Origin: an uncultured Leptospirales bacterium
Lineage (GTDB): Bacteria > Spirochaetota > UBA4802 > UBA5550
Direction of reading: 5' to 3'
Length of the DNA: 64,000 bases
NCBI GenBank assembly: GCA_964529965.1
Contig: CAZHAD010000003.1
Location: forward strand, 16,660-80,659
Position numbers and translations under genes: made by a program. Below the pieces are notes generated by a model. The model worked only from the letters and a program-made list of their open reading frames with translations, was not told the DNA's origin and searched no databases. This document shows positions 1 to 64,000 of this stretch, piece by piece; the stretch's first letter is position 1, and each line of letters begins with the position of its first letter.

Positions 1-612
1 CTGCACCGCCGCGGTGGCGATCGGGGTCCGGGGCCAGAGCGCGTTGACCGCCACACCCCGGTCCCTGAGCTCCTCAGAAAGGCCCAGCACGCACATCGAC
101 ATCCCGTATTTCGCCATGGTGTAGGCGAGCTGATTTTTAAACCAGCGGCCCTCCATGCTCAGGGGTGGTGAGAGCATCAGTATGTGGGGATTTTCGCTCT
201 TTTCCAAATAGGGCAGGGCTAGCTTCGAGACGAGGAAGGTCCCCCTCGCGTTCACCGCGGCCATGAGGTCGTAGCGCTTCATCTCGGTGCCCTCGATGCG
301 GGACAGGCTGATGGCGCTGGCGTTGTTCACCACGATGTCGATGCCCCCGAACTCTGCCGCCCCGAGCTCAATGGCCGCCCGCACCTGGTCCTCGAACCTG
401 ATGTCGCAGACCGCGGCCACCGCCCTGCCCCCGGCCTTTTTCATCTCGTCTGCGGCCGTGTGCACCGTCCCGGGGAGCTTCGGATGCGGATCCGCGGTCT
501 TGCCCACGACCACGATATTGGCGCCGTCGCGCGCGGCACGCAGGCCTATGGCCTTTCCGATGCCCCGGCTGCTTCCGGTTATGAACAAGGTTTTGTTGTG
601 TAAGCTTCCCAT
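1..612 (-). CDS. Short-chain dehydrogenase/reductase (SDR) family oxidoreductase; C-terminus runs off the window edge
   Basis: Absent from the ORF track because it runs off the edge. Reverse-strand translation from ATG at 612 reads MGSLHNKTLFITGSSRGIGKAIGLRAARDGANIVVVGK...VVNNASAI...AYTMAKYG (TGxxxGxG Rossmann, NNAS, YxxxK). Confidence 0.8.
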   Translation of the reverse strand, partial: MGSLHNKTLFITGSSRGIGKAIGLRAARDGANIVVVGKTADPHPKLPGTVHTAADEMKKAGGRAVAAVCDIRFEDQVRAAIELGAAEFGGIDIVVNNASAISLSRIEGTEMKRYDLMAAVNARGTFLVSKLALPYLEKSENPHILMLSPPLSMEGRWFKNQLAYTMAKYGMSMCVLGLSEELRDRGVAVNALWPRTPIATAAVQ

Positions 613-39330: not shown

Positions 39331-40491
39331 TTATTTCTTATTCTCCTTAACGAGCGTTTCAACGGCCCGAAGCGCGGCGCTGATTTCATCTTCCGTCGTA
39401 AAAACGCCGAAACTGAACCTGACCGTGCCTTCAGGGAACGTGCCGATGGTCCGGTGGGCCGAAGGCGCACAGTGGAGACCCGGCCGAGACATGATCCCGA
39501 ACCGCTCGTCCAGCTCGAAGGACACCTCCGACGGACTCATCCCCTTGACGGCGAATGACACGACCGCTGTTTTTTTCAACGGATCCGGGGGACCATAAAC
39601 GGTCACCCCCTGTATGGCATGGAGGCCCTCCATGAAAAGCCCGGTCAGCGCCGCTTCTTTTTCTCGTATCGCTTCAACGCCGGTGGAAAGAACATGCTCG
39701 ACACCTGCGCCGAGACCGGCGATGCCGATGGCGTTCGGGGTCCCGGATTCGAACCGGTCCGGCATGAATTCAGGCTGGTCCTCGAACTCCGACCCGCTCC
39801 CGGTGCCGCCCCGCTCAAGGGGCTCCACTAGTGTCTCGAGCCCCTTGCGTATATACATCCCGCCGGTCCCCTGGGGACCGTAGAGCGACTTATGGCCGGT
39901 GAAAAAAAGCATGTCTATCCCGGCTTTTTCAACGTCGACAGGCACGCTTCCCGCAGTCTGGGCCGCGTCCGCGCACATAAGCACGCCGCGATCGTGGGCA
40001 ACCGCAGCCAGCTCAGCCAGCGGCATTATGGTTCCGGTTACGTTCGAGGCGTGGGTGACGAACAACGCCCTGGTGTTGCTTTTTATCGCGCGGGCGACGT
40101 CGCCCGGGTCGATCTCCCCGGTCGGGGAGCAAACGATGACGTTCAATTCGACTCCTTCCCGCTCGGCTGCGCGGAGCGGCCGCATGACCGAGTTGTGCTC
40201 CATGCTCGAGCAGATGACGTGATCCCCGGGTCTGATAAGTCCCCTAACCGCGATATTTATGGCCTCGGTCGCATTCCGCGCGAAAATCACGGTGCACGGA
40301 TCACCCGCCCCTAATAAAAAAGCGATGCGCTCTCGCGCGTTAAAGACGATCCTTCCCGCCTCTATGGAAAGGCGATGTCCCGAACGGCCGGGGTTGGCGC
40401 CCACGTTCGCGTTGAAATCAGCCATGGCCCGGATCATCCCCCCGGGCTTCGGCCACGAGGTTGCGGCGTTGTCGAAATAGATACAGCTCAT
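39331..40491 (-). CDS. Class V aminotransferase-fold cysteine desulfurase / selenocysteine lyase family protein
   Basis: YFDNAATSWPKP, the PLP-lysine region FFTGHKSLYGPQGTG, and the C-terminal active-site loop RPGLHCAPSAH. Confidence 0.85.
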   Translation of the reverse strand: MSCIYFDNAATSWPKPGGMIRAMADFNANVGANPGRSGHRLSIEAGRIVFNARERIAFLLGAGDPCTVIFARNATEAINIAVRGLIRPGDHVICSSMEHNSVMRPLRAAEREGVELNVIVCSPTGEIDPGDVARAIKSNTRALFVTHASNVTGTIMPLAELAAVAHDRGVLMCADAAQTAGSVPVDVEKAGIDMLFFTGHKSLYGPQGTGGMYIRKGLETLVEPLERGGTGSGSEFEDQPEFMPDRFESGTPNAIGIAGLGAGVEHVLSTGVEAIREKEAALTGLFMEGLHAIQGVTVYGPPDPLKKTAVVSFAVKGMSPSEVSFELDERFGIMSRPGLHCAPSAHRTIGTFPEGTVRFSFGVFTTEDEISAALRAVETLVKENKK

Positions 40492-43435: not shown

Positions 43436-45718
43436 ATGAAAGTACATGTTACCATCGTCTGCCTCTGCATTATTACATGCATGCATGTATCCAACAGCGT
43501 TTCGGCGAGGGAGAAAAATCCGGAATCCGGAGAAATCGATGCGGTTGAGGGCGTTCAAACAAAAGAAAACAACGCCGGCGTTACGAACAACGTCGGGGAA
43601 AAAACAAATGAAAGCGAAACTTCCCGAAAACATGGCAAACCCACGGGCGTTGACGAAATAATCGTCAAATCGAAGCGCGAGTTACAGCCGTCCAGGACGG
43701 TGATTGACGTTGAATCCTCCCTCCCGCTCGGCATGCCCCAGAACATAATGGAGCTGCTGAAGAACCAATCGATGCTCGATTACCGCGGACAAACGAACCT
43801 GGTTCCGAATGATGACACCTACTACCTCAGGGGCTTCAGCGCCGACCGGTTTGTAACCGCAGTTGACGGTATGACCTTCCGCAAAACCGGGGGAAGAAAA
43901 TCGAGCCACATAGTGGATTACGCCCTCATACCCGTATGGCTTATACAACGGGTTGAGATTCTTCCCGGCCCGCATTCGGCCCTGTATCCGGGCAAAGCCA
44001 TCGGCGGGGTGGTCAATCTCATCACGAAAACACCGAAGAAACATGAAACCCTGAAGCCGGATGTCGGCCTGTCGGCGGGTTATGGGTCATACAATACGCA
44101 AAATTATAACGCCATGGTCAACGGCGGCGTCGAATCATTCATTTACGACCTGGGGTTCCAACACTACCGCACCAATGGAAACCTGAGACAGAGCGACGCC
44201 GACATCAGCACCATGTACGGAAGGATCGGGGGAGTATTTCCGAGAGAAGGATTTCTTACCGTAAGCCATTCATATTCAAGGTCGGACCGCGCAATACCGG
44301 TCAACAACAACCTGGGCTCAATGCTCACCGACCCCCTGGCCTCGTTCAACCCCGACTATCCGGTCGTGGCGAACTCTGAGTTCAACAACTGGCAGAATCC
44401 TTCCTGGAAGGATAAGGCGAACACGACAAGGTTTAATTTTTATCAGCCGACCCCGGCCGGGATCATAAAGGCCACCGGCTATTATGACACGGAAAGCCTC
44501 AACCGAAGGTATCCCGCATATATAAAAAAAGCAAATCCTTCGGCCGGAATCTACGATGCCTCCTGGGAGACCATATTCTGGCAATACGGCGGAAGAGTCG
44601 AATACGGGATAACCTACGCGAAAGAGCACACCACTACGGCGGCTTTCGACTTTGAGGAGCTTGAGGACGGAATGGGCCGGGCGCCTTCTTACAACCTCAT
44701 GAGGTACTCAAGGAAACAAAGGGTGGAAATCAAGGCGGGCGCCCTTCAGCACCGCTGGAACATATCGAGGATCATGGACCTGACCGTCGGTTTACGGTAT
44801 GAAGACGTATCTATATGGATATCGAATTTTTCCACATCCAGCTATAAATTGTATATCACCGGCAGGCCCACCTGGATCAAGCGACATTGGTGTGGCTGGA
44901 TGCCGAAATCATTCGTGACCTTCAAATTCGACAAAATCGCCGACCTTTTGAAGCACACCTCTTTGTCAGTCGGGGTGAGCAGGATCTGGCACGCTCCGGA
45001 CTATCACGGCTTATACAACCCGCAGGGAAGGCCGGCGGGCGTATGGCTTCACAACGAAGACGGCGTCGGCTACGACTTCATCGCGATGAGGAGGATCTGG
45101 CGCGATATAACCCTGCAGGCCAGGTATTATCTCTATGACATCAAGAATTTTATCGCTTCTAATGGGAGCTTTGCTCAATTCAGCGGCCCGACCGCTCCGC
45201 CCGGATTCGAATATAAGGATTATGTGACGAATCTGACAAAGGTGCGCCACTACGGCGTGGAGATCGACCTTTACGGGGAGATTATCAGGGGTCTTTCGCT
45301 CCATACCTCATACACCTACCAGGAGTTTTTTTATATGGGAAATTCCGTGTTCGGCAGGCTCACTGCGAAGGTTGCGCTTGACGGGCAAGCCAAACACCGG
45401 TTCAGGGCCGGGCTCCGCTATCTGCTTCCCTACACAAACACCCTTTTCATGGCGGACTACGGATATGAATCCGATCAGGTTTACCTGAATCCGGTTCAGG
45501 TGGAGACCGACGTCTATCTGTTTTACATTACAAAAAACAATCCCTATCACCTGCTCGATGTCGGCATCGAACAGATAATATTAGAGGACATGTATCATTT
45601 CAGAACCCTGCGCGTCAAGGTATACATCAAAAACATCCTGAACGACATATACCAGGATGAATTCGGGTACCAGATGCCGGGCCGCACCTTCGGCGGTGAA
45701 ATCAGCATAAAATTCTAA
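43436..45718 (+). CDS. TonB-dependent outer-membrane receptor
   Basis: 760 aa with a signal peptide, an N-terminal plug region (DEIIVKSKRE...), a long beta-barrel and a C-terminal aromatic terminus ...GGEISIKF. Confidence 0.85.
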   Translation: MKVHVTIVCLCIITCMHVSNSVSAREKNPESGEIDAVEGVQTKENNAGVTNNVGEKTNESETSRKHGKPTGVDEIIVKSKRELQPSRTVIDVESSLPLGMPQNIMELLKNQSMLDYRGQTNLVPNDDTYYLRGFSADRFVTAVDGMTFRKTGGRKSSHIVDYALIPVWLIQRVEILPGPHSALYPGKAIGGVVNLITKTPKKHETLKPDVGLSAGYGSYNTQNYNAMVNGGVESFIYDLGFQHYRTNGNLRQSDADISTMYGRIGGVFPREGFLTVSHSYSRSDRAIPVNNNLGSMLTDPLASFNPDYPVVANSEFNNWQNPSWKDKANTTRFNFYQPTPAGIIKATGYYDTESLNRRYPAYIKKANPSAGIYDASWETIFWQYGGRVEYGITYAKEHTTTAAFDFEELEDGMGRAPSYNLMRYSRKQRVEIKAGALQHRWNISRIMDLTVGLRYEDVSIWISNFSTSSYKLYITGRPTWIKRHWCGWMPKSFVTFKFDKIADLLKHTSLSVGVSRIWHAPDYHGLYNPQGRPAGVWLHNEDGVGYDFIAMRRIWRDITLQARYYLYDIKNFIASNGSFAQFSGPTAPPGFEYKDYVTNLTKVRHYGVEIDLYGEIIRGLSLHTSYTYQEFFYMGNSVFGRLTAKVALDGQAKHRFRAGLRYLLPYTNTLFMADYGYESDQVYLNPVQVETDVYLFYITKNNPYHLLDVGIEQIILEDMYHFRTLRVKVYIKNILNDIYQDEFGYQMPGRTFGGEISIKF

Positions 45719-51461: not shown

Positions 51462-52322
51462 ATGAACATAACGGTAGCGAGCGGGAAGGGAGGCACGGGA
51501 AAGACGACCGTTGCGCTGTCCCTGGCGGCGTGTTATTCACGCAACGGCATACGCGTCTCCATACTCGACTGCGATGTCGAGGAGCCGAATGTCAATCTCT
51601 TCCTGAAGGCCGAAATAGAGGGCGTCGAAACCTTCAGCATGCCGGTCCCCCGTGTGGAGGAATCACGCTGCACAGGATGCGGGGAGTGCGAGCGGATATG
51701 CGCATTCAACGCCGTCGTGCTTGTAAAGGGAAAGCCGCTGATCTTCCCGGAACTGTGCCATTCATGCGGGGGGTGCGGCCTCGTCTGTCCCGAGGGCGCG
51801 GTCACGGAAACGGCTAAACCGATCGGCGTTATAGAAAGTGGGTACAGAGACGGCGTCAGCTACGCGGGTGGCAGGCTCAATATAGGCGAGCCGATGTCCC
51901 CGCCGCTCATCAGGGAGGTGAAGCGGCGCCATATGGAATCGGACGTCAGGATCATCGATTCGCCTCCGGGTACGTCCTGCCCCGCGGTGGAAGCAATGAA
52001 GGAAAGCGATTACGTTGTGCTGGTGACCGAGCCCACTCCTTTCGGCCTCCACGATCTTACCCTCGCCGCGGGTGCGGTGCGCGCGCTCGGGATCCCGTTC
52101 GGCGTGGTGGTCAACCGGGCGGACATCGGCGACGACTCCTTTATGGAAGAGTGCCTGGCCAGGAGGTATGAGATTATCGCAACCATCCCCCATTCAAGAG
52201 AAATCGCGGAATCATATTCGCGCGGCGACTGCATTTCATATATAATGTACCGCTATCGCGAAGAAATAGAAAAAATCGCGTCACGCGCGGAATACTGCAA
52301 TGCGAGGAACGTTCGGGCATGA
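51462..52322 (+). CDS. MinD/ParA-class P-loop ATPase with inserted 2x[4Fe-4S] ferredoxin module (COG1149-like), type 1
   Basis: SGKGGTGKTT P-loop. CTGCGECERICAFNA and CHSCGGCGLVCPEGA motifs. DSPPGTSCP. Confidence 0.85.
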   Translation: MNITVASGKGGTGKTTVALSLAACYSRNGIRVSILDCDVEEPNVNLFLKAEIEGVETFSMPVPRVEESRCTGCGECERICAFNAVVLVKGKPLIFPELCHSCGGCGLVCPEGAVTETAKPIGVIESGYRDGVSYAGGRLNIGEPMSPPLIREVKRRHMESDVRIIDSPPGTSCPAVEAMKESDYVVLVTEPTPFGLHDLTLAAGAVRALGIPFGVVVNRADIGDDSFMEECLARRYEIIATIPHSREIAESYSRGDCISYIMYRYREEIEKIASRAEYCNARNVRA

Positions 52323-53182
52323 TCCGGGAACTGGTGATCATCAGCGGAAAGGGGGGGACGGGAAAGACGAGCATAGCGGCTTCGTTCGCGGCGCTTGCGA
52401 AAAACAAGGTCATGGCCGACTGCGACGTGGACGCGTCCGACCTTCACCTGGTATTGCAGCCCGGGATCATTCAAACCGAACCCTTTGAAGGCGGCATGAA
52501 GGCATTCATCAACAAGGGCCTGTGCGCCTCATGCGGAGAATGCCTGCGGACATGCCGCTTCGACGCGATCGACGATAATTTTGACGTGGACCAGATATCC
52601 TGCGAGGGGTGCGGAGTGTGCGCGCGTTTCTGCCCCCAGGAGGCGATTGAAATGAGGCGACACGTTTCCGGCAAATGGTTCGTGTCCGATACACGACACG
52701 GGCCGCTCGTGCACGCCCGCCTCGGCATCGCGGAGGGGAATTCGGGCAAGCTCGTCACCCTTATCAAAAAGAAGGCACGTGAGATCGCGGACGAAAGGGG
52801 ACAAGGCCTCGTCATCGTGGACGGCTCGCCGGGCACGGGCTGTCCGGTCATCGCCACGATCTCCGGCGCATCCCTGATCCTGATCGTGACCGAGCCGACC
52901 GTGGCAGGGCTTCACGATCTGCAGAGGGTCTTCGATCTGACCCGCCATTTCCGCGTCAAAGCGGCGGTCTGCGTCAACAAGGCCGACATCAACCCGGACA
53001 AGGCCGCGGAGATAAAGGCGTTTTGCGAACAAAACGCCGTCCCCCTGCTGGCGTCCGTTCCCTATGACACTGAAGTGACGCGGGCGCAGGTGGCCGGAAA
53101 AAGCCTTGTGGAATTTTCCGGGGGAACGGCATCCCGGATATTACGTTCAATGTGGAAAGATATCGAAATATTGTTACATTAG
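52319..53182 (+). CDS. MinD/ParA-class P-loop ATPase with inserted ferredoxin module (COG1149-like), type 2
   Basis: SGKGGTGKTS P-loop. CASCGECLRTCRFDA and CEGCGVCARFCPQEA motifs. DGSPGTGCP. ATGA overlap with the type-1 gene. Confidence 0.85.
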   Translation: MIRELVIISGKGGTGKTSIAASFAALAKNKVMADCDVDASDLHLVLQPGIIQTEPFEGGMKAFINKGLCASCGECLRTCRFDAIDDNFDVDQISCEGCGVCARFCPQEAIEMRRHVSGKWFVSDTRHGPLVHARLGIAEGNSGKLVTLIKKKAREIADERGQGLVIVDGSPGTGCPVIATISGASLILIVTEPTVAGLHDLQRVFDLTRHFRVKAAVCVNKADINPDKAAEIKAFCEQNAVPLLASVPYDTEVTRAQVAGKSLVEFSGGTASRILRSMWKDIEILLH

Positions 53183-53212
53183 TATTAATAGCAAATCAGA
53201 AGGATAAATTAA

Positions 53213-54091
53213 ATGTTGAAAAAGCAGGCTGAAGAAGCATCAAACAACCAGAACCCTGAGGGACCCGTACATGCGGACAAAGAGGCGGAGGAACGCGCCG
53301 CGCTCAAAAAGAACATGGACAGGATATCCCATAAGATCATAGTTCTTTCCGGCAAGGGCGGCGTGGGCAAAAGCACGGTGGCCGTAAACCTCGCCGTTTC
53401 CCTTGCAGAAAAAAAATTCAAGACCGGGCTGCTCGATATCGACATTCACGGCCCCAGCGTCCCGAAGCTCCTGGGAATCGAAAAGGGCCAGGTGCTCGGA
53501 GCCGGAGACGGAAAACTGCTGCCGGTTGAATACAACGAGCACCTCAAGGTCATGTCAATCGGTTTTCTGCTCCAAGACCACGACGATGCGGTGATCTGGC
53601 GCGGGCCGTTGAAATACGGCGTCATCAGGCAGTTCCTCTCCGACGTGGACTGGGGCGAGCTTGACTATCTCATCATCGATTCCCCGCCGGGGACCGGAGA
53701 CGAGCCCCTCACCATATGCCAGCTCATCGAAAATCCGGACGGGGCGATCGTAGTCACCACGCCGCAGGACGTCGCGCTCATCGATGTCAGAAAATCCATA
53801 AGCTTCTGCAAGCAGCTCAATATGCCGGTCATCGGAGTCATTGAAAACATGAGCGGGTTCGTCTGTCCCCATTGCGGAAAAGAAACCGACATATTCAAGA
53901 ACGGCGGCGGGAAAAAAATGGCCGGCGAAACGAGCGTTCCCTACCTCGGCAGTATACCGATCGAGAGCCGCATCACTGCAAGCGGGGACAGCGGAAAGCC
54001 CTTTTACGATGCCGCCGGAGATATCGCCACCGCGGCCCAGAAAAATTTTTCATCCATCGTGGAAACAATAATAAAAGGAGCAACAAAATGA
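53213..54091 (+). CDS. Mrp/NBP35 (ApbC) family Fe-S cluster carrier ATPase
   Basis: SGKGGVGKSTVAVNLA, DSPPGTGDE, and the CPHCG motif in ENMSGFVCPHCGKETDIF. Confidence 0.9.
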   Translation: MLKKQAEEASNNQNPEGPVHADKEAEERAALKKNMDRISHKIIVLSGKGGVGKSTVAVNLAVSLAEKKFKTGLLDIDIHGPSVPKLLGIEKGQVLGAGDGKLLPVEYNEHLKVMSIGFLLQDHDDAVIWRGPLKYGVIRQFLSDVDWGELDYLIIDSPPGTGDEPLTICQLIENPDGAIVVTTPQDVALIDVRKSISFCKQLNMPVIGVIENMSGFVCPHCGKETDIFKNGGGKKMAGETSVPYLGSIPIESRITASGDSGKPFYDAAGDIATAAQKNFSSIVETIIKGATK

Positions 54092-54426
54092 AAATAGCAC
54101 TGCCCATATCGGATAATAAGCTCTGCATGCACTTCGGACACTGCGAGCGCTTTGAGGTCTTCGATGTTGACGACGACACCAAAGAGATTACCGCGCGCGC
54201 GACGTTCGACGCGCCGCCGCACCAGCCCGGGCTTCTGCCGCGCTGGCTGGCTGAGAAAGGGGTGACGTGCGTAATTGCCGGCGGCATGGGCTCACGCGCC
54301 GTCGACATTTTCAGGGAAAACGGCGTGAGCGTCGTCACGGGAGCGAATGCGGGGGAACCGGATTCGATCGTGAAAGATTTTATCCAGGGCCGGCTCATTG
54401 CTGGCGAGAACGTGTGCGACCATTAA
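54088..54426 (+). CDS. NifX/NifB-C-terminal-like domain protein
   Basis: ATGA overlap with the Mrp gene. MKIALPISDNKLCMHFGHCERFEVFDV...CVIAGGMGSRAVDIFRENGVSVV. Confidence 0.8.
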   Translation: MKIALPISDNKLCMHFGHCERFEVFDVDDDTKEITARATFDAPPHQPGLLPRWLAEKGVTCVIAGGMGSRAVDIFRENGVSVVTGANAGEPDSIVKDFIQGRLIAGENVCDH

Positions 54427-55193: not shown

Positions 55194-55430
55194 ATGCCAA
55201 CGTATGAATATCATTGTACACAATGCGGATATCGTTACGAGCTCTTTCAGAGAATGAGCGACGAGCCGCGTTCTGCGTGCCCCTCATGCGGCGGAGAGGG
55301 GAAGCGATTGATTTCCGCGGGCGCGGGAATCATCGTCAAGGGAAAAAATACCGCGCCGACTCCCTGCGGGAACGACAGCCCATGCTGCGGCAGGGGTGAG
55401 CCGTGCGGGAAGTCTTTTGAGTGCGGATAA
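55194..55430 (+). CDS. FmdB-family zinc-ribbon protein (CxxC_CxxC_SSSS type)
   Basis: [34 protein letters not shown]. Confidence 0.8.
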
Positions 55431-55449
55431 TATATTAAAGGAGGCGCCT

Positions 55450-56175
55450 ATGCCGGAAGAATTCAAACCGGGTTGCGCGAGGCCTACGGGGGGACCCGTG
55501 GGTGAGGAGCCGGCCTCGGCCGGTTCCAAGGAACCGATCCTAATAGAGGAGGAAAAAAAGGTCATGATCCAGGTCGGAAAAAAAGCCCCTGATTTTATTG
55601 CGCCAGCGTATTATCAGGGAAAATTCGTCACTGTCAAGCTTTCGGAATATCTCGGCAAGTGGACCCTGCTCTGCTTCTATCCCGGAGATTTCACTTTCGT
55701 TTGAGCTACTGAAATTTCGGCGGTCGCCGAAAAATATCCCGAGTTCCAGAAGCTCGGAGTCAACATCCTCTCAATGAGCATCGACAGCGTGTTCGTGCAT
55801 AAAATGTGGAACGACAATGAGCTGTCCAAAATGGTGAAAGGAGGCGTGCCATTCCCCATGCTCTCGGACGCGGGAGGCAAGGTGGGATCGGCATACGGCA
55901 TCTACGACGCAGACGCCGGAGTGGAGACCCGGGGCAGGTTCATCATCGATCCCGACGGGATCGTGCAGGGATTCGAGGTCCTCACGCCGCCGGTCGGCCG
56001 CAACGTGGCCGAGTCGATACGGCAGGTGCAGGCCTTCCAGCTAGTCAGAAACAGCAAGGGCGCCGAGGCCACTCCCTCCGGATGGAAACCGGGCAAGAAG
56101 ACCCTGAAGCCGGGCCCGGACCTTGTGGGCAAAGTCTGGGAGGTTTGGAAAACAAGCATGGCCTTCGACGATTAA
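55450..56175 (+). CDS. Selenocysteine-containing peroxiredoxin (PrxU-like); UGA at 55702-55704 read as Sec
   Basis: Track ORFs 55396..55704 and 55774..56175 are in the same frame, separated only by TGA. Joined, they read [23 protein letters not shown], which is the universal FYPxDFTFVCPTE peroxidatic motif. AAGGAGG precedes ATG 55450. An alternative start at 55564 gives [11 protein letters not shown]. Confidence 0.75.
55715..55732 (+). promoter_or_regulatory. Bacterial SECIS-like hairpin downstream of the peroxiredoxin UGA
   Basis: TTTCGGC-GGTC-GCCGAAA is a 7-bp stem with a GGUC apical loop. It starts 10 nt after the UGA. Confidence 0.6.
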
Positions 56176-56190
56176 GCTCTTTTCACTACT

Positions 56191-56216
56191 CTTGCCCCCG
56201 AAATATCGGGGGCAAG
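56191..56216 (+). terminator. Hairpin after the peroxiredoxin gene
   Basis: CTTGCCCCCG-AAATAT-CGGGGGCAAG is a 10-bp perfect stem. The T-tract is weak (TCTTC). Confidence 0.45.
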
Positions 56217-56426: not shown

Positions 56427-56915
56427 TCAGCTAATAAAAAATCCCCCCGGCTTTTCTTCAATCGATTCCGGCATCCTTTCCACAAAGTCTTTGATTTCGT
56501 CCCTGACGCGCCGGTATATGGCGAGGGCTTCCTCCTGATTCGCCGCGCTTTTCGCAAGCGTCGGGGGATCTTCAAATCCGTGGTGAACCACTTTTGTCCT
56601 TCCGGGGAATACGGGACAATGCTCGGCGGCGTGTCCGCACAACGTGATGACGAAGTCGAATTCTGTTCCGGCAAATTCATCGACGTGCTTCGAGCGCCGT
56701 CCTGAAATGTCGATTCCTATCTCGGCCATTACCTTGACCGCGAGGGGATCGACGCCGCGCGGCTCGGTGCCTGCGGAATACGCCTCAATGACGCCGCTCT
56801 TGAGCGCACCCGCAAGCCCCTCGGCCATCTGGCTACGGCAGGAGTTGCCGGTGCAGAGGAAAAGTATCTTTAATTTATTTTCCGCCAAATTACATCCGCG
56901 TCCCTGTATGATCAT
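56427..56915 (-). CDS. arsC: Arsenate reductase, LMW-PTPase/thioredoxin-coupled type
   Basis: ILFLCTGNSCRSQMAEG (CX5R loop) and the Cys pair in ITLCGHAAEHCP. The start may be downstream of 56915. Confidence 0.85.
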   Translation of the reverse strand: MIIQGRGCNLAENKLKILFLCTGNSCRSQMAEGLAGALKSGVIEAYSAGTEPRGVDPLAVKVMAEIGIDISGRRSKHVDEFAGTEFDFVITLCGHAAEHCPVFPGRTKVVHHGFEDPPTLAKSAANQEEALAIYRRVRDEIKDFVERMPESIEEKPGGFFIS

Positions 56916-57163: not shown

Positions 57164-57607
57164 TTACTCTACGGGATAACCCTTTCTGGACCAGGCCTGC
57201 CAGCCACCGTCTATATTTTTGATATTCGTGTAGCCCATTCTTGTCAGATTGAAGGCGGTTAGACAGGCACGTCCGCCCGACTTGCAATAAATAATGATTT
57301 GAGCGGCTTTATCAGGGATCTTGCTCGTGACCTTAAACTCGATAAGACCCCTCGGAATATTAATTGCATTAGGCACATGACCGGCCTTATACTCCTTTGG
57401 CTCTCTCACATCGAGAAAAATAACACCGCTCTTGCCGAGCATGGCTTTGGCTTTATCCACAGAAATGGAAACAACTGATTTCTTCGCCTCGTCAACGAGG
57501 TCTTTGGCGGTCATATCCTTGGCTAAAGAAAAATCGACCTTGAAAACGAAAGCAAAGCCAATCATTAAGATCACTGTCAAGCGAAGAAGCAAATTTTTTT
57601 CTCTCAT
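57164..57607 (-). CDS. Periplasmic rhodanese-domain sulfurtransferase
   Basis: Signal peptide MREKNLLLRLTVILMIGFAFVF. Active-site loop YCKSGGRA. Rhodanese core FLDVREPKEYKAGHVPNAINIP. Confidence 0.85.
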   Translation of the reverse strand: MREKNLLLRLTVILMIGFAFVFKVDFSLAKDMTAKDLVDEAKKSVVSISVDKAKAMLGKSGVIFLDVREPKEYKAGHVPNAINIPRGLIEFKVTSKIPDKAAQIIIYCKSGGRACLTAFNLTRMGYTNIKNIDGGWQAWSRKGYPVE

Positions 57608-57703: not shown

Positions 57704-59050
57704 CTAGCGATCCCGCATTTCGGAAATCCTTTCGGGTACCTTGTCAACCGGAACGATAACGCTCTCATTCGCTTTAAGCTCGCTGTCGACGACATCTTTC
57801 TTGAGAAGAAATAACGATTCGTTCCCGTGACACGAATTACAGCTCTTATTCTGCGACGTCTTTCTTCTGATATTATGGGGCGTCGTCATCTTCCACGTGG
57901 GAACACTGTTAAAATTCACTAAGGATCTCTTGGTATAATACTCACAAGTGCTGTCACAGACAGGTATATGCCTGAGGACGGAAAACTTTTCCGGCCTTTT
58001 CTTCGACCGCATCGGATTGAATCCGATCTTAAAGGCCATCCAGGAGGCCTTGCTCTTATAACAGGGAATCCCTCTTGTGTCGATACTCACGTGACAGGAA
58101 GTGCAATTTTTATACGGCTGGGAATGACAGACATAGCAGCTCGCTTTATCCCTGTGAATTGTATGTGTTTTAGCATTCTTAGAGTTACTGTCATAGATCT
58201 TCTTATGGCAATTTATGCACATCGGACCATTATCAACAGCGTATCGATTTTTGTATTCCTTGTCACCGCCATGCATCTCCGTACCGGTATGGCACTTCTC
58301 ACATTTCATAAATTTTTCGTAATGAACATCAGGCTTCATGTCCTTGTTCTCGCCGAAATATTCCTTTCCGATTCTGCTGCCGTGACATGCAGTGCAAACC
58401 AATTTCATGGGAGGCTTTCTCTGAAAGAGATGCCCTTCAAGGAACCCGCCATCAATAGAGTTCGGTCTGCTGATATGACACTGCCCGCAGCTGCTATGGC
58501 ACGTGCTGCAGTGATTCTTGAAGACTTTATCCATTTTTTTCCGAATTGCCTTATCGGAGCCCGCCCTCTTGTAGAGCGCCGTTTTAAAAGGCTTCAGGGT
58601 AACGTGAAGGCTCTTTCCGTAATTCTTTACTATGTCATCGTGACAATCACCGCAGACCTTCCCTGCATCGGGATAGGTCGGGTCTTTAACCACGCCCTTG
58701 TGTGCGGTTTTCCAATTGGGATCCCCCGGGTTGCCTCCATGGCAGGTGTGACACTCGATATTTCCGTGGTTTTCATCCTCAAGAATGTCACTGTCTACGA
58801 AGATCTTTTCATGCGGGGCCAACGGCTCCACCTCACCGCCTCATCCCTCACCCTCATTGGCAGGTTTAATTACCGGCCTTGTTTTGGCGATCTCCCTGGT
58901 TATTTCAATCAACGTGCGTGCATTTGTATGGCACTTGAAGCACTGGCTTGCAGGTACCTCGGCGCCGAAGGGTTCGCCCTGCATGAGAAGCAGACAGGAT
59001 ACAACGAAAAGACAAAATAACCCGGCAATGCCCAAATATTTCCCCATCAA
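57704..59050 (-). CDS. Multihaem c-type cytochrome (10 CxxCH + 1 upstream CxxCH); the signal-peptide segment is joined through an in-frame UGA (58843-58841), so a possible selenoprotein
   Basis: Track ORFs 58841..59050 (signal peptide + CFKCH) and 57704..58831 (GTG start, no signal peptide, 10 CxxCH) are in the same frame. They are separated by TGA-GGC-GGT-GAG. The fused reading is ...PANEGEG-U-GGEVEPLAPHE.... Confidence 0.55.
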
Positions 59051-62120: not shown

Positions 62121-62431
62121 GTTTGATCGTCCTTCTCATTAATCATGGAGGTGATCATGTCCGCCATCCGATGTCCGACAACCGTGACCGTCACGCCGCT
62201 GACCCCCTCCAGTCTCTCAAGGGCCTCCCTGATACGAAATGCCAGCGGCAACACCAGCGGGCACTCGGGAGACGATGGGCGGAACTCCATAGAGACCGCG
62301 CCCCCGCCGTTTATCGACAGGTTTCGTATCAGCCCCATGCTCATCACATCCATGTTGGTGCCTGGGTCGGTTACTTCCTTGAGCCTTTGATGAAGCCGTT
62401 CCATCATATCCATCGCCCACTCACGTTTCAA
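62117..62431 (-). CDS. DUF59 (MIP18/SufT-like) Fe-S assembly domain protein
   Basis: LKEVTDPGTNMDVMSMGLIRNLSI...FRPSSPECPL. 4-nt overlap with the methyltransferase gene. Confidence 0.7.
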   Translation of the reverse strand: MKREWAMDMMERLHQRLKEVTDPGTNMDVMSMGLIRNLSINGGGAVSMEFRPSSPECPLVLPLAFRIREALERLEGVSGVTVTVVGHRMADMITSMINEKDDQT

Positions 62432-63281
62432 GACGGCCCCGTATGCGTTCCCACATTTTTTTCACCTCAGCGGTAACTTCCCCGCAATCGTGTTCCACCA
62501 CGGACTTGCGCAGTATCATGGCCTTGGTTACCTCCGGGTCGTACCGTATCTTCCCCGCGACATCGAGTCCTTTTGCCGCACAGTACTCCTCGATGGTTGA
62601 CGCATTATAGGGATTGATGTCGCACTTGTTGATGCATACCATAACCGGTATGTCAAAGTGCGCTGCCACATCAACCACGCGTTTGAGGTCATGGATGCCC
62701 GAAAGCGTCGGTTCCGTGACGGCCAGAAGAAGATCCGCGCCGGTGATCGAGGCTATTACCGGACAGCCGATACCCGGCGGCCCGTCCGTGATAATCGTGG
62801 GGGTAGCTTCCCCTTCCGCGGCATTTGACGCCAGCTGGCGCACCAGGGTCACCAGTTTGCCGGAGTTCTCTTCTGCGATGCCGAGCCGGGCGTGCGTCAT
62901 GGTCCCGGCTCTGGTATGCGATATGAACCACCTGCCCGAGATGGCGCGCTCCATGGCGATCGCCTCTTCCGGGCAGGTCCGCGCGCAAAAGGCGCACCCC
63001 TCGCAGGACACCGGGTCGACGGTGAAATCGTGTATGGCGTCGAAGCGGCAGAGGCTCTCGCAAAGACCGCAGCGCGTGCATTTCGATTCGTCAATGACGG
63101 CTATCTTTCCCCCGAGAAAATCGCCGGTTTCCACGCTTTCCGGATCCAGTATGAGATGGAGGTCCGCCGCGTCGACGTCGCAGTCGGCGATTACCGGGGC
63201 CTTCGCCAGCATCGAGAGCGCCGCCGTGATGCTGGTTTTCCCTGTCCCACCCTTACCGCTTATGACAGTGAGCTTTTTCAT
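62421..63281 (-). CDS. MinD/ParA-class P-loop ATPase with inserted ferredoxin module (COG1149-like), type 2 paralogue
   Basis: MKKLTVISGKGGTGKTS. CTRCGLCESLCRFDA and CEGCAFCARTCPEEA motifs. DGPPGIGCP. Colinear with 52319..53182. Confidence 0.85.
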   Translation of the reverse strand: MKKLTVISGKGGTGKTSITAALSMLAKAPVIADCDVDAADLHLILDPESVETGDFLGGKIAVIDESKCTRCGLCESLCRFDAIHDFTVDPVSCEGCAFCARTCPEEAIAMERAISGRWFISHTRAGTMTHARLGIAEENSGKLVTLVRQLASNAAEGEATPTIITDGPPGIGCPVIASITGADLLLAVTEPTLSGIHDLKRVVDVAAHFDIPVMVCINKCDINPYNASTIEEYCAAKGLDVAGKIRYDPEVTKAMILRKSVVEHDCGEVTAEVKKMWERIRGRLET

Positions 63282-64000
63282 ATCTGGCATACTCCGCTTT
63301 GATGTGGTCAAACAGGGACTCATAGCGCGCACGGTATTCCCGGAGGTTCTCAAGAATGAGCATCCCCGCCGAGTACTGCTCCGCGATACGACGGTCCCAG
63401 GGAAAAGACATCAATATCGGAATTTTTTCCTCTTCGCAGTAGTTGCTCACCTCGTTATCGCCGATATTGCATAAATTTATTACCACGCCCATTGGAACGT
63501 TGAGTTTCCTGACCATTTCAACCGCGAGCTTTAAATCGTTGAGGCCGAAAGGCGTCGGTTCCGTCACCAAAACGCAGAAATCGGCACCCTTCACGGTTTC
63601 CACCACCGGGCAGGATGTTCCGGGCGGCGAGTCCAAGATGACCGTACGCCCGGACTCGATGCGATCCTTCACCCTACGTATGAGAGGTGGCGCCATGGGC
63701 TCCCCGACGTTCAGGACGCCGTGAACGAAGGATAGACCACCAGTTGATCCTGTTTCAATGACGCCTATCTCGCGATCCTCCTCGCGGATGGCCTTTTCCG
63801 GGCAGAAATACTCACATGCGCCGCACCCGTGGCAGAGCTCCGGGAATACCATGACGCGCTTCTTTATAACGACGATCGCGCTGAACTCGCAAACCTCGCC
63901 GCACTTCCCGCAATGGGTGCACCGCGATTCATCGACCACGGGCACAGGAAGCCCTACTGTTTCCCTTTTATAAATAACCGGCTTCAAGAACAGATGTGTG
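63253..64000 (-). CDS. MinD/ParA-class P-loop ATPase with inserted ferredoxin module (COG1149-like), type 1 paralogue; N-terminus beyond the window
   Basis: The frame stays open to the window edge (THLFLKPVIYK...). CTHCGKCGEVCEFSA and CHGCGACEYFCPEKA motifs. DSPPGTSCP. Colinear with 51462..52322. Confidence 0.85.
   Translation of the reverse strand, partial: THLFLKPVIYKRETVGLPVPVVDESRCTHCGKCGEVCEFSAIVVIKKRVMVFPELCHGCGACEYFCPEKAIREEDREIGVIETGSTGGLSFVHGVLNVGEPMAPPLIRRVKDRIESGRTVILDSPPGTSCPVVETVKGADFCVLVTEPTPFGLNDLKLAVEMVRKLNVPMGVVINLCNIGDNEVSNYCEEEKIPILMSFPWDRRIAEQYSAGMLILENLREYRARYESLFDHIKAEYARYEKAHCHKR

Follow-up and report, generated by a model that had tools for sequence, protein, structure and literature searches.

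The 64,000-nucleotide stretch of contig CAZHAD010000003.1 from an uncultured Leptospirales bacterium, analysed at its full length and hereafter called the window (G+C content 53.7%), carries on its plus strand a peroxiredoxin (Prx) gene, prxU, in which an in-frame TGA falls on the codon of the catalytic residue. The reading frame between positions 55450 and 56175 comprises 241 codons, is interrupted solely by the TGA at 55702–55704 and ends with a TAA stop codon at 56173–56175. Two open reading frames (ORFs), 55396–55704 and 55774–56175, share this frame with that TGA alone between them, just as the first-pass annotation of the stretch had read from the raw letters. We conclude with high confidence that the locus encodes a PrxU-type peroxiredoxin, with a UGA-encoded selenocysteine (Sec) at residue 85 as the predicted catalytic residue and a selenocysteine insertion sequence (SECIS) of the fdhF type downstream of it. 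The features on which this assignment is based are as follows:

55450..56175, plus strand: prxU coding sequence, long form; 241 codons including the predicted UGA-Sec85; NF040737 match; 80 full-length orthologous loci
55681..55704, plus strand: active-site motif PGDFTFV-U (PxxxTxxU), aligning to PLDFTFVC of solved peroxiredoxins
55702..55704, plus strand: predicted UGA selenocysteine codon; residue 85, or residue 47 counted from Met39; TGA in 80 of 80 loci
55715..55732, plus strand: predicted bacterial SECIS hairpin with a 7-bp stem; apical GGUC at 55722–55725, invariant GU at 55723–55724

The family assignment was obtained from Pfam and NCBIfam searches in which Cys was put in place of the stop. 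The read-through product matches the NCBIfam model NF040737 (peroxi_PrxU, thioredoxin-dependent peroxiredoxin) with 418.2 bits against an equivalog cut-off of 270, and the next-best NCBIfam model, AhpC, remains under its own cut-off. The match runs from residue 7 to 237 of the protein and from position 2 to 233 of the 233-position profile, and the N-terminal extension of the protein is covered. The Pfam domain AhpC-TSA (PF00578) was found with an E-value of 1e-37, and the 1-cysPrx_C domain was matched as well. The best relatives with solved structures are typical 2-Cys peroxiredoxins (4fh8, 5zte, and PRDX2), with E-values down to 7e-49. The alignment to 4fh8 and 5zte is gapless over the TGA and sets the UGA codon on the peroxidatic Cys of DFTFVCPTE, so that the active-site motif read across the TGA in the first-pass annotation holds. 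Two further residues, P78 and T82, and the arginine of RGRFIIDP also align with the solved structures, and PxxxTxxU/TxxU is a named signature of Sec-containing peroxiredoxins (PMC13188914). The Prx core was modelled by AlphaFold2 on a Cys-type homologue (P0017, 92-sequence alignment) with a predicted local distance difference test (pLDDT) score above 90. Since the NCBI equivalog model is passed and Sec-peroxiredoxin is listed in reviews among the experimentally verified prokaryotic selenoproteins, with Söhling 2001 referenced (PMC13188914; PMC9312934), the finding is already known: the PrxU family is catalogued, and the gene is correct but ordinary.

Orthologous loci were collected from one genome per species, which yielded at least 503 relatives; the analyses described here use the best 80 loci, all of which match residues 1–240/241. 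Each of these 80 loci has TGA at the homologous codon, which, together with the NF040737 match, upholds the earlier proposal of a Sec-peroxiredoxin of the PrxU type. The closest loci (84–91% identity) belong to metagenome-assembled genomes (MAGs) of Spirochaetota, and the remainder of the 80 are found mostly in Desulfobacterota, with additional representatives in Acidobacteriota, Calditrichota, and Fibrobacterota. A near-identical locus with the same TGA is present on four JGI metagenome contigs (L081–L084; samples 3300063041 and 3300062531-33), where prxU is annotated as two genes of 84 and 133 amino acids; the split by automated annotation that the first-pass annotation had anticipated has thus already occurred. 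Among the 121 family members in the protein database, the Sec column contains Trp in 106, Cys in 12, and Gly in one. The Trp and Gly entries are best explained by pipelines that chose genetic code 4 or 25 on short contigs and translated the TGA accordingly. The 12 Cys-type homologues supply the alignment with Cys-containing orthologues that had been suggested as a check, since their Cys stands in the UGA column; for four of them, the DNA sequence confirmed a TGC codon.

The hairpin TTTCGGC-GGTC-GCCGAAA begins 10 nt 3' of the TGA and has a free energy of −9.5 kcal/mol when folded alone. For its comparative analysis, 75 nt around the TGA were aligned for the window and the 80 loci (81 sequences in total). 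Without any hint, RNAalifold returned exactly this 7-bp helix and no other. Pairing is retained in 99.8% of the cells across the 81 sequences, and in 85 cells both partners have changed. The covariation score was not equalled in any of 500 shuffles; in a control where the 3' arm was slid by 1–3 columns, only 42–70% of the cells paired. Five of the seven stem pairs are invariant, since they fall on first or second codon positions and the encoded residues are conserved. Covariation is seen at each of the three synonymous-site pairs, two of them in the stem and the third formed by the first and last bases of the loop. The Ile/Glu wobble pair (columns 24/39) is UA in 58 and CG in 22 sequences, the Ser/Ala wobble pair (columns 27/36) is GC in 47, AU in 16, UA in 11, CG in four, and GU in three, and the loop ends (columns 30/33, third positions of Ala and Val) are AU in 48, GC in 32, and GU in one, with no mismatch. 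The G and U enclosed by them (columns 31/32, positions +22/+23 from the UGA) are invariant in all 81 sequences. This covariation is unusually clear, and that of the loop ends leaves a GU dinucleotide as the tip. The four TGC-type relatives have 4, 5, 5, and 6 of the eight in-register pairs left, and the GU tip is gone from three of them. This loss in Cys-type relatives ties the hairpin to the UGA and argues against a side effect of the encoded peptide.

The minimum free energy fold of the single sequence additionally contained an outer helix between UUUGAGCU, which includes the UGA, and AGCUCGGA, located about 50 nt downstream. This helix was dropped by RNAalifold and was rejected, since the partner of the G of the UGA is C in the window and G, T, or A in most orthologues.

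The closest counterpart considered is the verified SECIS of Escherichia coli fdhF, a 42-mer of which lies in fdhF in 5,419 of 5,426 E. coli genomes. Both elements have a GGUC-capped stem with an exposed G and U, and both start 10–11 nt past the UGA. Counted from the U of the UGA, the fdhF loop occupies +22..25 and its GU +23/24, whereas the prxU loop is at +21..24 and its GU at +22/23. Unlike that of fdhF, the prxU helix is a shorter, perfect 7-bp stem devoid of the bulged U and the lower helix, and AGUU replaces GGUC in approximately 59% of the prxU orthologues. Scanned against Rfam at gathering thresholds, the entire window gave no match; this bacterial SECIS is thus not recognised by any curated model. 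On the strength of its conservation and covariation in 80 genomes, the hairpin that the first-pass annotation had called SECIS-like, 10 nt past the TGA and with a GGUC loop, is a predicted bacterial SECIS of the fdhF type. The GU exposed at its tip would allow SelB carrying Sec-tRNA(Sec) to be brought to the ribosome, and Sec to be inserted at the UGA.

Outside the active site, prxU has a distinctive 5' part and an unusual set of cysteine positions, defined by the following features:

55438..55444, plus strand: Shine-Dalgarno (SD) sequence AAGGAGG of the long-form start, 5 nt before the ATG at 55450
55471..55506, plus strand: near-invariant motif of the N-terminal arm, residues 8–19; Cys9 codon at 55474–55476
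55507..55563, plus strand: variable charged linker, residues 20–38, differing in sequence and length among orthologues
55546..55552, plus strand: internal SD-like GAGGAGG within the linker, its AGGAG core before the internal ATG
55564..55566, plus strand: internal ATG (Met39), start of the canonical Prx domain and possible second initiation site
55672..55674, plus strand: codon of Cys75 (LLCFYP), conserved specifically in this family and 10 residues N-terminal to Sec
56071..56073, plus strand: codon of Thr208 at the canonical C-terminal resolving-Cys position; EATPSGW versus EVCPAGW (4fh8, 5zte)

The best start adds 38 residues, among them Cys9, to the N-terminus, in agreement with the first-pass annotation. 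Of the 81 orthologues, at least 60 have an SD-like motif ahead of the equivalent start, and most of the sequences that lack it have a mis-picked GTG or TTG codon lying inside the SD itself. The extension is present in 80 of 80 orthologues and consists of the near-invariant 12-residue motif followed by the charged linker. At 79 loci, the first and second codon positions of the arm motif are almost fixed, the third position takes all four bases, and Arg is encoded by both AGR and CGN; this pattern indicates translation of the motif and selection at the protein level. Across the family more widely, the arm has the core G-C-x-R-P, with Cys9 conserved in 106 of the 107 members that have the arm. 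A lipobox reading of the N-terminal GC was rejected, as no hydrophobic signal segment lies ahead of it. In the AlphaFold2 model of P0017, the pLDDT is below 50 for residues 19–35 (the linker) and approximately 62 for the arm.

At the end of the linker, the Met39 codon is ATG in 81 of 81 sequences, and the AGGAG core is likewise present upstream in all 81, typically at a distance of 8–9 nt. The residues encoded over this internal SD vary (KEV, KEE, KEA, KET, EEV, and others), and the codons are strongly skewed, with 51 AAG versus 1 AAA and 66 GAG versus 8 GAA, compared with roughly 46 and 42% in the gene body. Stand-alone short prxU genes (L103 and L104) start exactly at the equivalent of Met39 and keep the TGA; in-frame stops and an AT-rich spacer are found upstream of them. 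The characterised PrxU of Eubacterium acidaminophilum, a short form of 203 residues with Sec47, corresponds to the same numbering, Sec85 being residue 47 when counted from Met39. It is possible, though somewhat short of an even chance, that the long-form gene also yields an arm-less 203-residue isoform from Met39. Two points speak against such a dual start: the internal SD might be left over from an ancestral start or result from the Lys/Glu-rich composition of the linker, and its spacer in the window is 11 nt, longer than the 8–9 nt of most orthologues.

Several other explanations of the locus were considered. Were the TGA a nonsense mutation or an assembly error in a Cys-peroxiredoxin, the gene would be a pseudogene or an artefact, and both the splitting of prxU by gene callers on the near-identical contigs and the existence of Cys-type relatives with TGC would fit; yet the same codon is TGA in 80 of 80 independent assemblies and on the four independent JGI contigs, purifying selection is strong on both halves of the gene, and a covarying hairpin lies 3' of the codon, so that this explanation is effectively refuted. 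A reassigned code, in which TGA would mean Trp (code 4) or Gly (code 25) with no Sec involved, would account for the 106 of 121 database homologues stored with Trp and the single one with Gly at the Sec position. These Trp calls are, however, best explained by the behaviour of gene callers on contigs of about 1 kb, and a reassigned TGA would need no covarying hairpin with an invariant GU tip. In addition, nusA (1384–2790), arsC (56427–56915), and mrpORP (53213–54091) end in TGA at the ends of their family models, and six-frame read-through scans of the 64 kb give just two credible in-frame TGAs; the combination of TGA stops in family genes with only two in-frame TGAs excludes code reassignment. 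Against the selenoprotein interpretation weigh two negative results confined to the 64-kb window, namely that NCBIfam scans of 40 window ORFs revealed no selA, selB, or selD, and that ARAGORN detected no tRNA, tRNA-Sec included.

The hairpin itself might be a by-product of the conserved peptide ISAVAEK that plays no part in recoding, any read-through then taking another route. The five stem pairs that never vary, at first and second codon positions, are compatible with this explanation, and so is a fold z-score of only −2.0 for the single sequence; it is nonetheless very improbable, because the third positions of Ile/Glu, Ser/Ala, and Ala/Val covary with pairing kept in 80, 81, and 81 of 81 sequences, respectively, Ser is always encoded by TCN, and Cys-type relatives with similar peptides keep 4–6 of 8 pairs. 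The product might also be solely the 203-residue protein from Met39, the upstream 38 codons serving as an untranslated leader or encoding a regulatory leader peptide. The strong, universally conserved SD and ATG at Met39, the existence of stand-alone short-form genes, and the size and Sec47 numbering of the E. acidaminophilum protein are in line with a short product. Its exclusive synthesis here appears improbable, if less so than the peptide by-product, given that the arm motif has the coding pattern described above (positions 1 and 2 fixed, position 3 free, Arg by AGR and CGN), that the upstream codons are in frame without a stop and have their own SD and ATG, and that the arm is covered by the 233-position NF040737 profile.

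With PrxU retained as a long-form selenoprotein, its catalytic cycle can be outlined by homology. The Sec85 selenolate, located in the PxxxTxxU...R pocket, would reduce a hydroperoxide and thereby be oxidised to selenenic acid. The canonical C-terminal resolving position is occupied by Thr208 in the window, by Thr or Ala in 119 of 121 family members, and by Cys in two, which agrees with the earlier remark that EATPSGW leaves no resolving Cys at the usual site, where solved structures have EVCPAGW. Since the canonical Cys is absent, the oxidised Sec85 would be resolved by a non-canonical thiol. In the route we prefer, Cys9, carried on a disordered tether of about 20 residues, would form a Se–S bond with Sec85 that thioredoxin then reduces. 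The invariance of Cys9, the disordered linker, and the co-occurrence of the arm with the loss of the C-terminal Cys favour this residue, and we tentatively name it as the candidate resolving thiol while judging its chance to be less than even. Arm-less PrxU genes with the same UGA exist and show that the arm is dispensable and Cys9 not essential for catalysis, and the arm is modelled with the low pLDDT given above; both points count against Cys9. Live alternatives are Cys75, conserved in 118 of 121 family members where the aligned solved 2-Cys peroxiredoxins have Phe (LFFYP), and direct reduction by thioredoxin, as in 1-Cys enzymes. A bolder and rather unlikely extension is an undescribed resolving mechanism, in which the tethered GCxRP Cys would capture the selenenic acid as Se–S, either within its own subunit or in an adjacent one, while an arm-less isoform is made as well, so that subunits with and without the arm would occur together in the oligomer. 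A literature search of limited reach turned up no mention of either the GCxRP arm or the internal start, and both may be under-described.

PrxU was first described in E. acidaminophilum by Söhling et al. 2001 (cited in PMC13188914 and PMC9312934). The window protein shares with the PrxU family the AhpC/TSA fold, the UGA at the peroxidatic position in PxxxTxxU, the loss of the C-terminal resolving Cys, and a SECIS hairpin directly 3' of the UGA. Its host is an uncultured member of Spirochaetota, whereas E. acidaminophilum is a Firmicute. The window protein is the long form, with a 38-residue arm that contains the GCxRP cysteine, as opposed to the short form of E. acidaminophilum. Typical 2-Cys peroxiredoxins of the Prx1/AhpC type (human PRDX2, 1qmv; Ancylostoma AcePrx-1, 4fh8; Salmonella AhpC) are its best structural relatives by sequence (E-values from 1e-39 to 7e-49) and have in common with it the active-site Pro, Thr, and Arg, the RGxFIIDP motif, and the C-terminal domain PF10417. 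The window protein differs from them in having Sec for the peroxidatic Cys, Thr for the resolving Cys of EVCPxxW, Cys for Phe at position −10, and the added N-terminal arm. With 1-Cys peroxiredoxins of the Prx6 type it shares the lack of a canonical C-terminal resolving Cys and hence the need for an external or unconventional thiol, but its best NCBIfam and PDB matches are in the AhpC/Prx1 group, and it has the extra conserved Cys9 and Cys75.

The second credible in-frame TGA of the window is found 1.5 kb from prxU, in a multihaem cytochrome c gene on the minus strand (57704–59050) that encodes 11 CxxCH motifs. This TGA (58843–58841, predicted Sec70) lies in the motif EGEG-U-GGEVEPLAPHEK and is followed by a hairpin at 58829–58815, with the spacing found in prxU. 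The 69 residues before it hold a signal peptide and the first haem site, and the TGA alone separates them from the rest of the protein. Approximately 118 of 120 database entries of its homologues are called from the Val or Met right after the TGA, and a single full-length entry has Trp. At metagenome loci with 39–61% identity, the TGA, the motif GEG-U-GG, and the hairpin GGAGCC-GUU-GGCYCC are kept, with GU at +21/22. The JGI contigs L081–L084 carry the cytochrome split into genes of 68 and 372 amino acids. The occurrence of two independent genes with a conserved UGA and hairpin on one contig makes a Sec-decoding host the sole economical reading. Six-frame read-through scans revealed no selenoprotein genes in the window other than prxU and that of the cytochrome; the other in-frame TGA candidates were rejected as adjacent same-frame genes or non-coding frames. 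A tblastn search of the cytochrome against the flanks of the PrxU loci gave no match, so linkage between the two selenoprotein genes is not a general feature.

An assignment of the cytochrome to MccSep/ExtKL was rejected in view of its 11 CxxCH motifs, the position of Sec70, and the lack of an NF040886 match; MccSep/ExtKL carries five haems, and its Sec325 lies within DGUP (PMC13510729). The cytochrome also matched neither NF041027 nor TIGR04315, and the sequence search of PDB found no relative with a solved structure. Many of its homologues are named 'thiosulfate/3-mercaptopyruvate sulfurtransferase' in JGI, a poor fit to a multihaem cytochrome. The cytochrome may represent an uncatalogued selenoprotein family, and it is probably a more interesting object of this stretch than prxU.

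The order mrpORP, DUF (domain of unknown function), AF_2379, fmdB-type zinc ribbon, and prxU is common to seven Spirochaetota MAGs (L001, L002, L004–L007, and L010), at 50–80% protein identity. The FmdB-family zinc-ribbon gene (55194–55430, plus strand) ends 20 nt before prxU, a spacing that makes their co-transcription likely, and this pairing is conserved in the related Spirochaetota MAGs. The FmdB family is listed with Sec-containing (U/CxxU) members (PMC9312934); the copy in the window is all-Cys. Downstream of prxU, one further feature was detected:

56191..56216, plus strand: G+C-rich 10-bp perfect hairpin CTTGCCCCCG-AAATAT-CGGGGGCAAG, 16 nt after the prxU stop

This hairpin is a possible terminator; it was not called by the terminator scan, and no T-run follows it.

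Several MinD/ParA-like ATPases with ferredoxin-type 4Fe-4S domains and an MrpORP-like iron–sulfur carrier flank the prxU region (51462–54426, plus strand; 62421–63987, minus strand). After the cytochrome on the minus strand follow a rhodanese (57164–57607) and a thioredoxin-type arsenate reductase (56427–56915), folds with selenoprotein variants that are both Cys-containing here; the rhodanese scores 60 bits against NF041203 ('rhodanese-related (seleno)protein', cut-off 115). The TonB-dependent receptor at 43436–45718 (plus strand) is most similar to NF049945, the FCYXU-type selenoprotein model. It was rejected as a member (626 bits against a cut-off of 825, no FCY motif, and no in-frame TGA) and is regarded as a non-Sec relative. 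The class-V aminotransferase at 39331–40491 (minus strand) passed TIGR01977 (cysteine desulfurase family) with 463 bits. It also resembles the selenocysteine lyase SclA, scoring 381 bits where the cut-off is 525, and may have a bearing on selenium handling.

For the annotation of this family, the locus demonstrates that common metagenome pipelines mis-annotate prxU, by breaking it into two pieces or by placing Trp at the catalytic position. The recoded UGA, the SECIS, and the family are all recognisable from the raw sequence, which makes the locus a clean positive control. For the biology of PrxU, the Cys9 arm and the internal start offer testable ideas on how a Sec-peroxiredoxin that has no canonical resolving Cys may be recycled.

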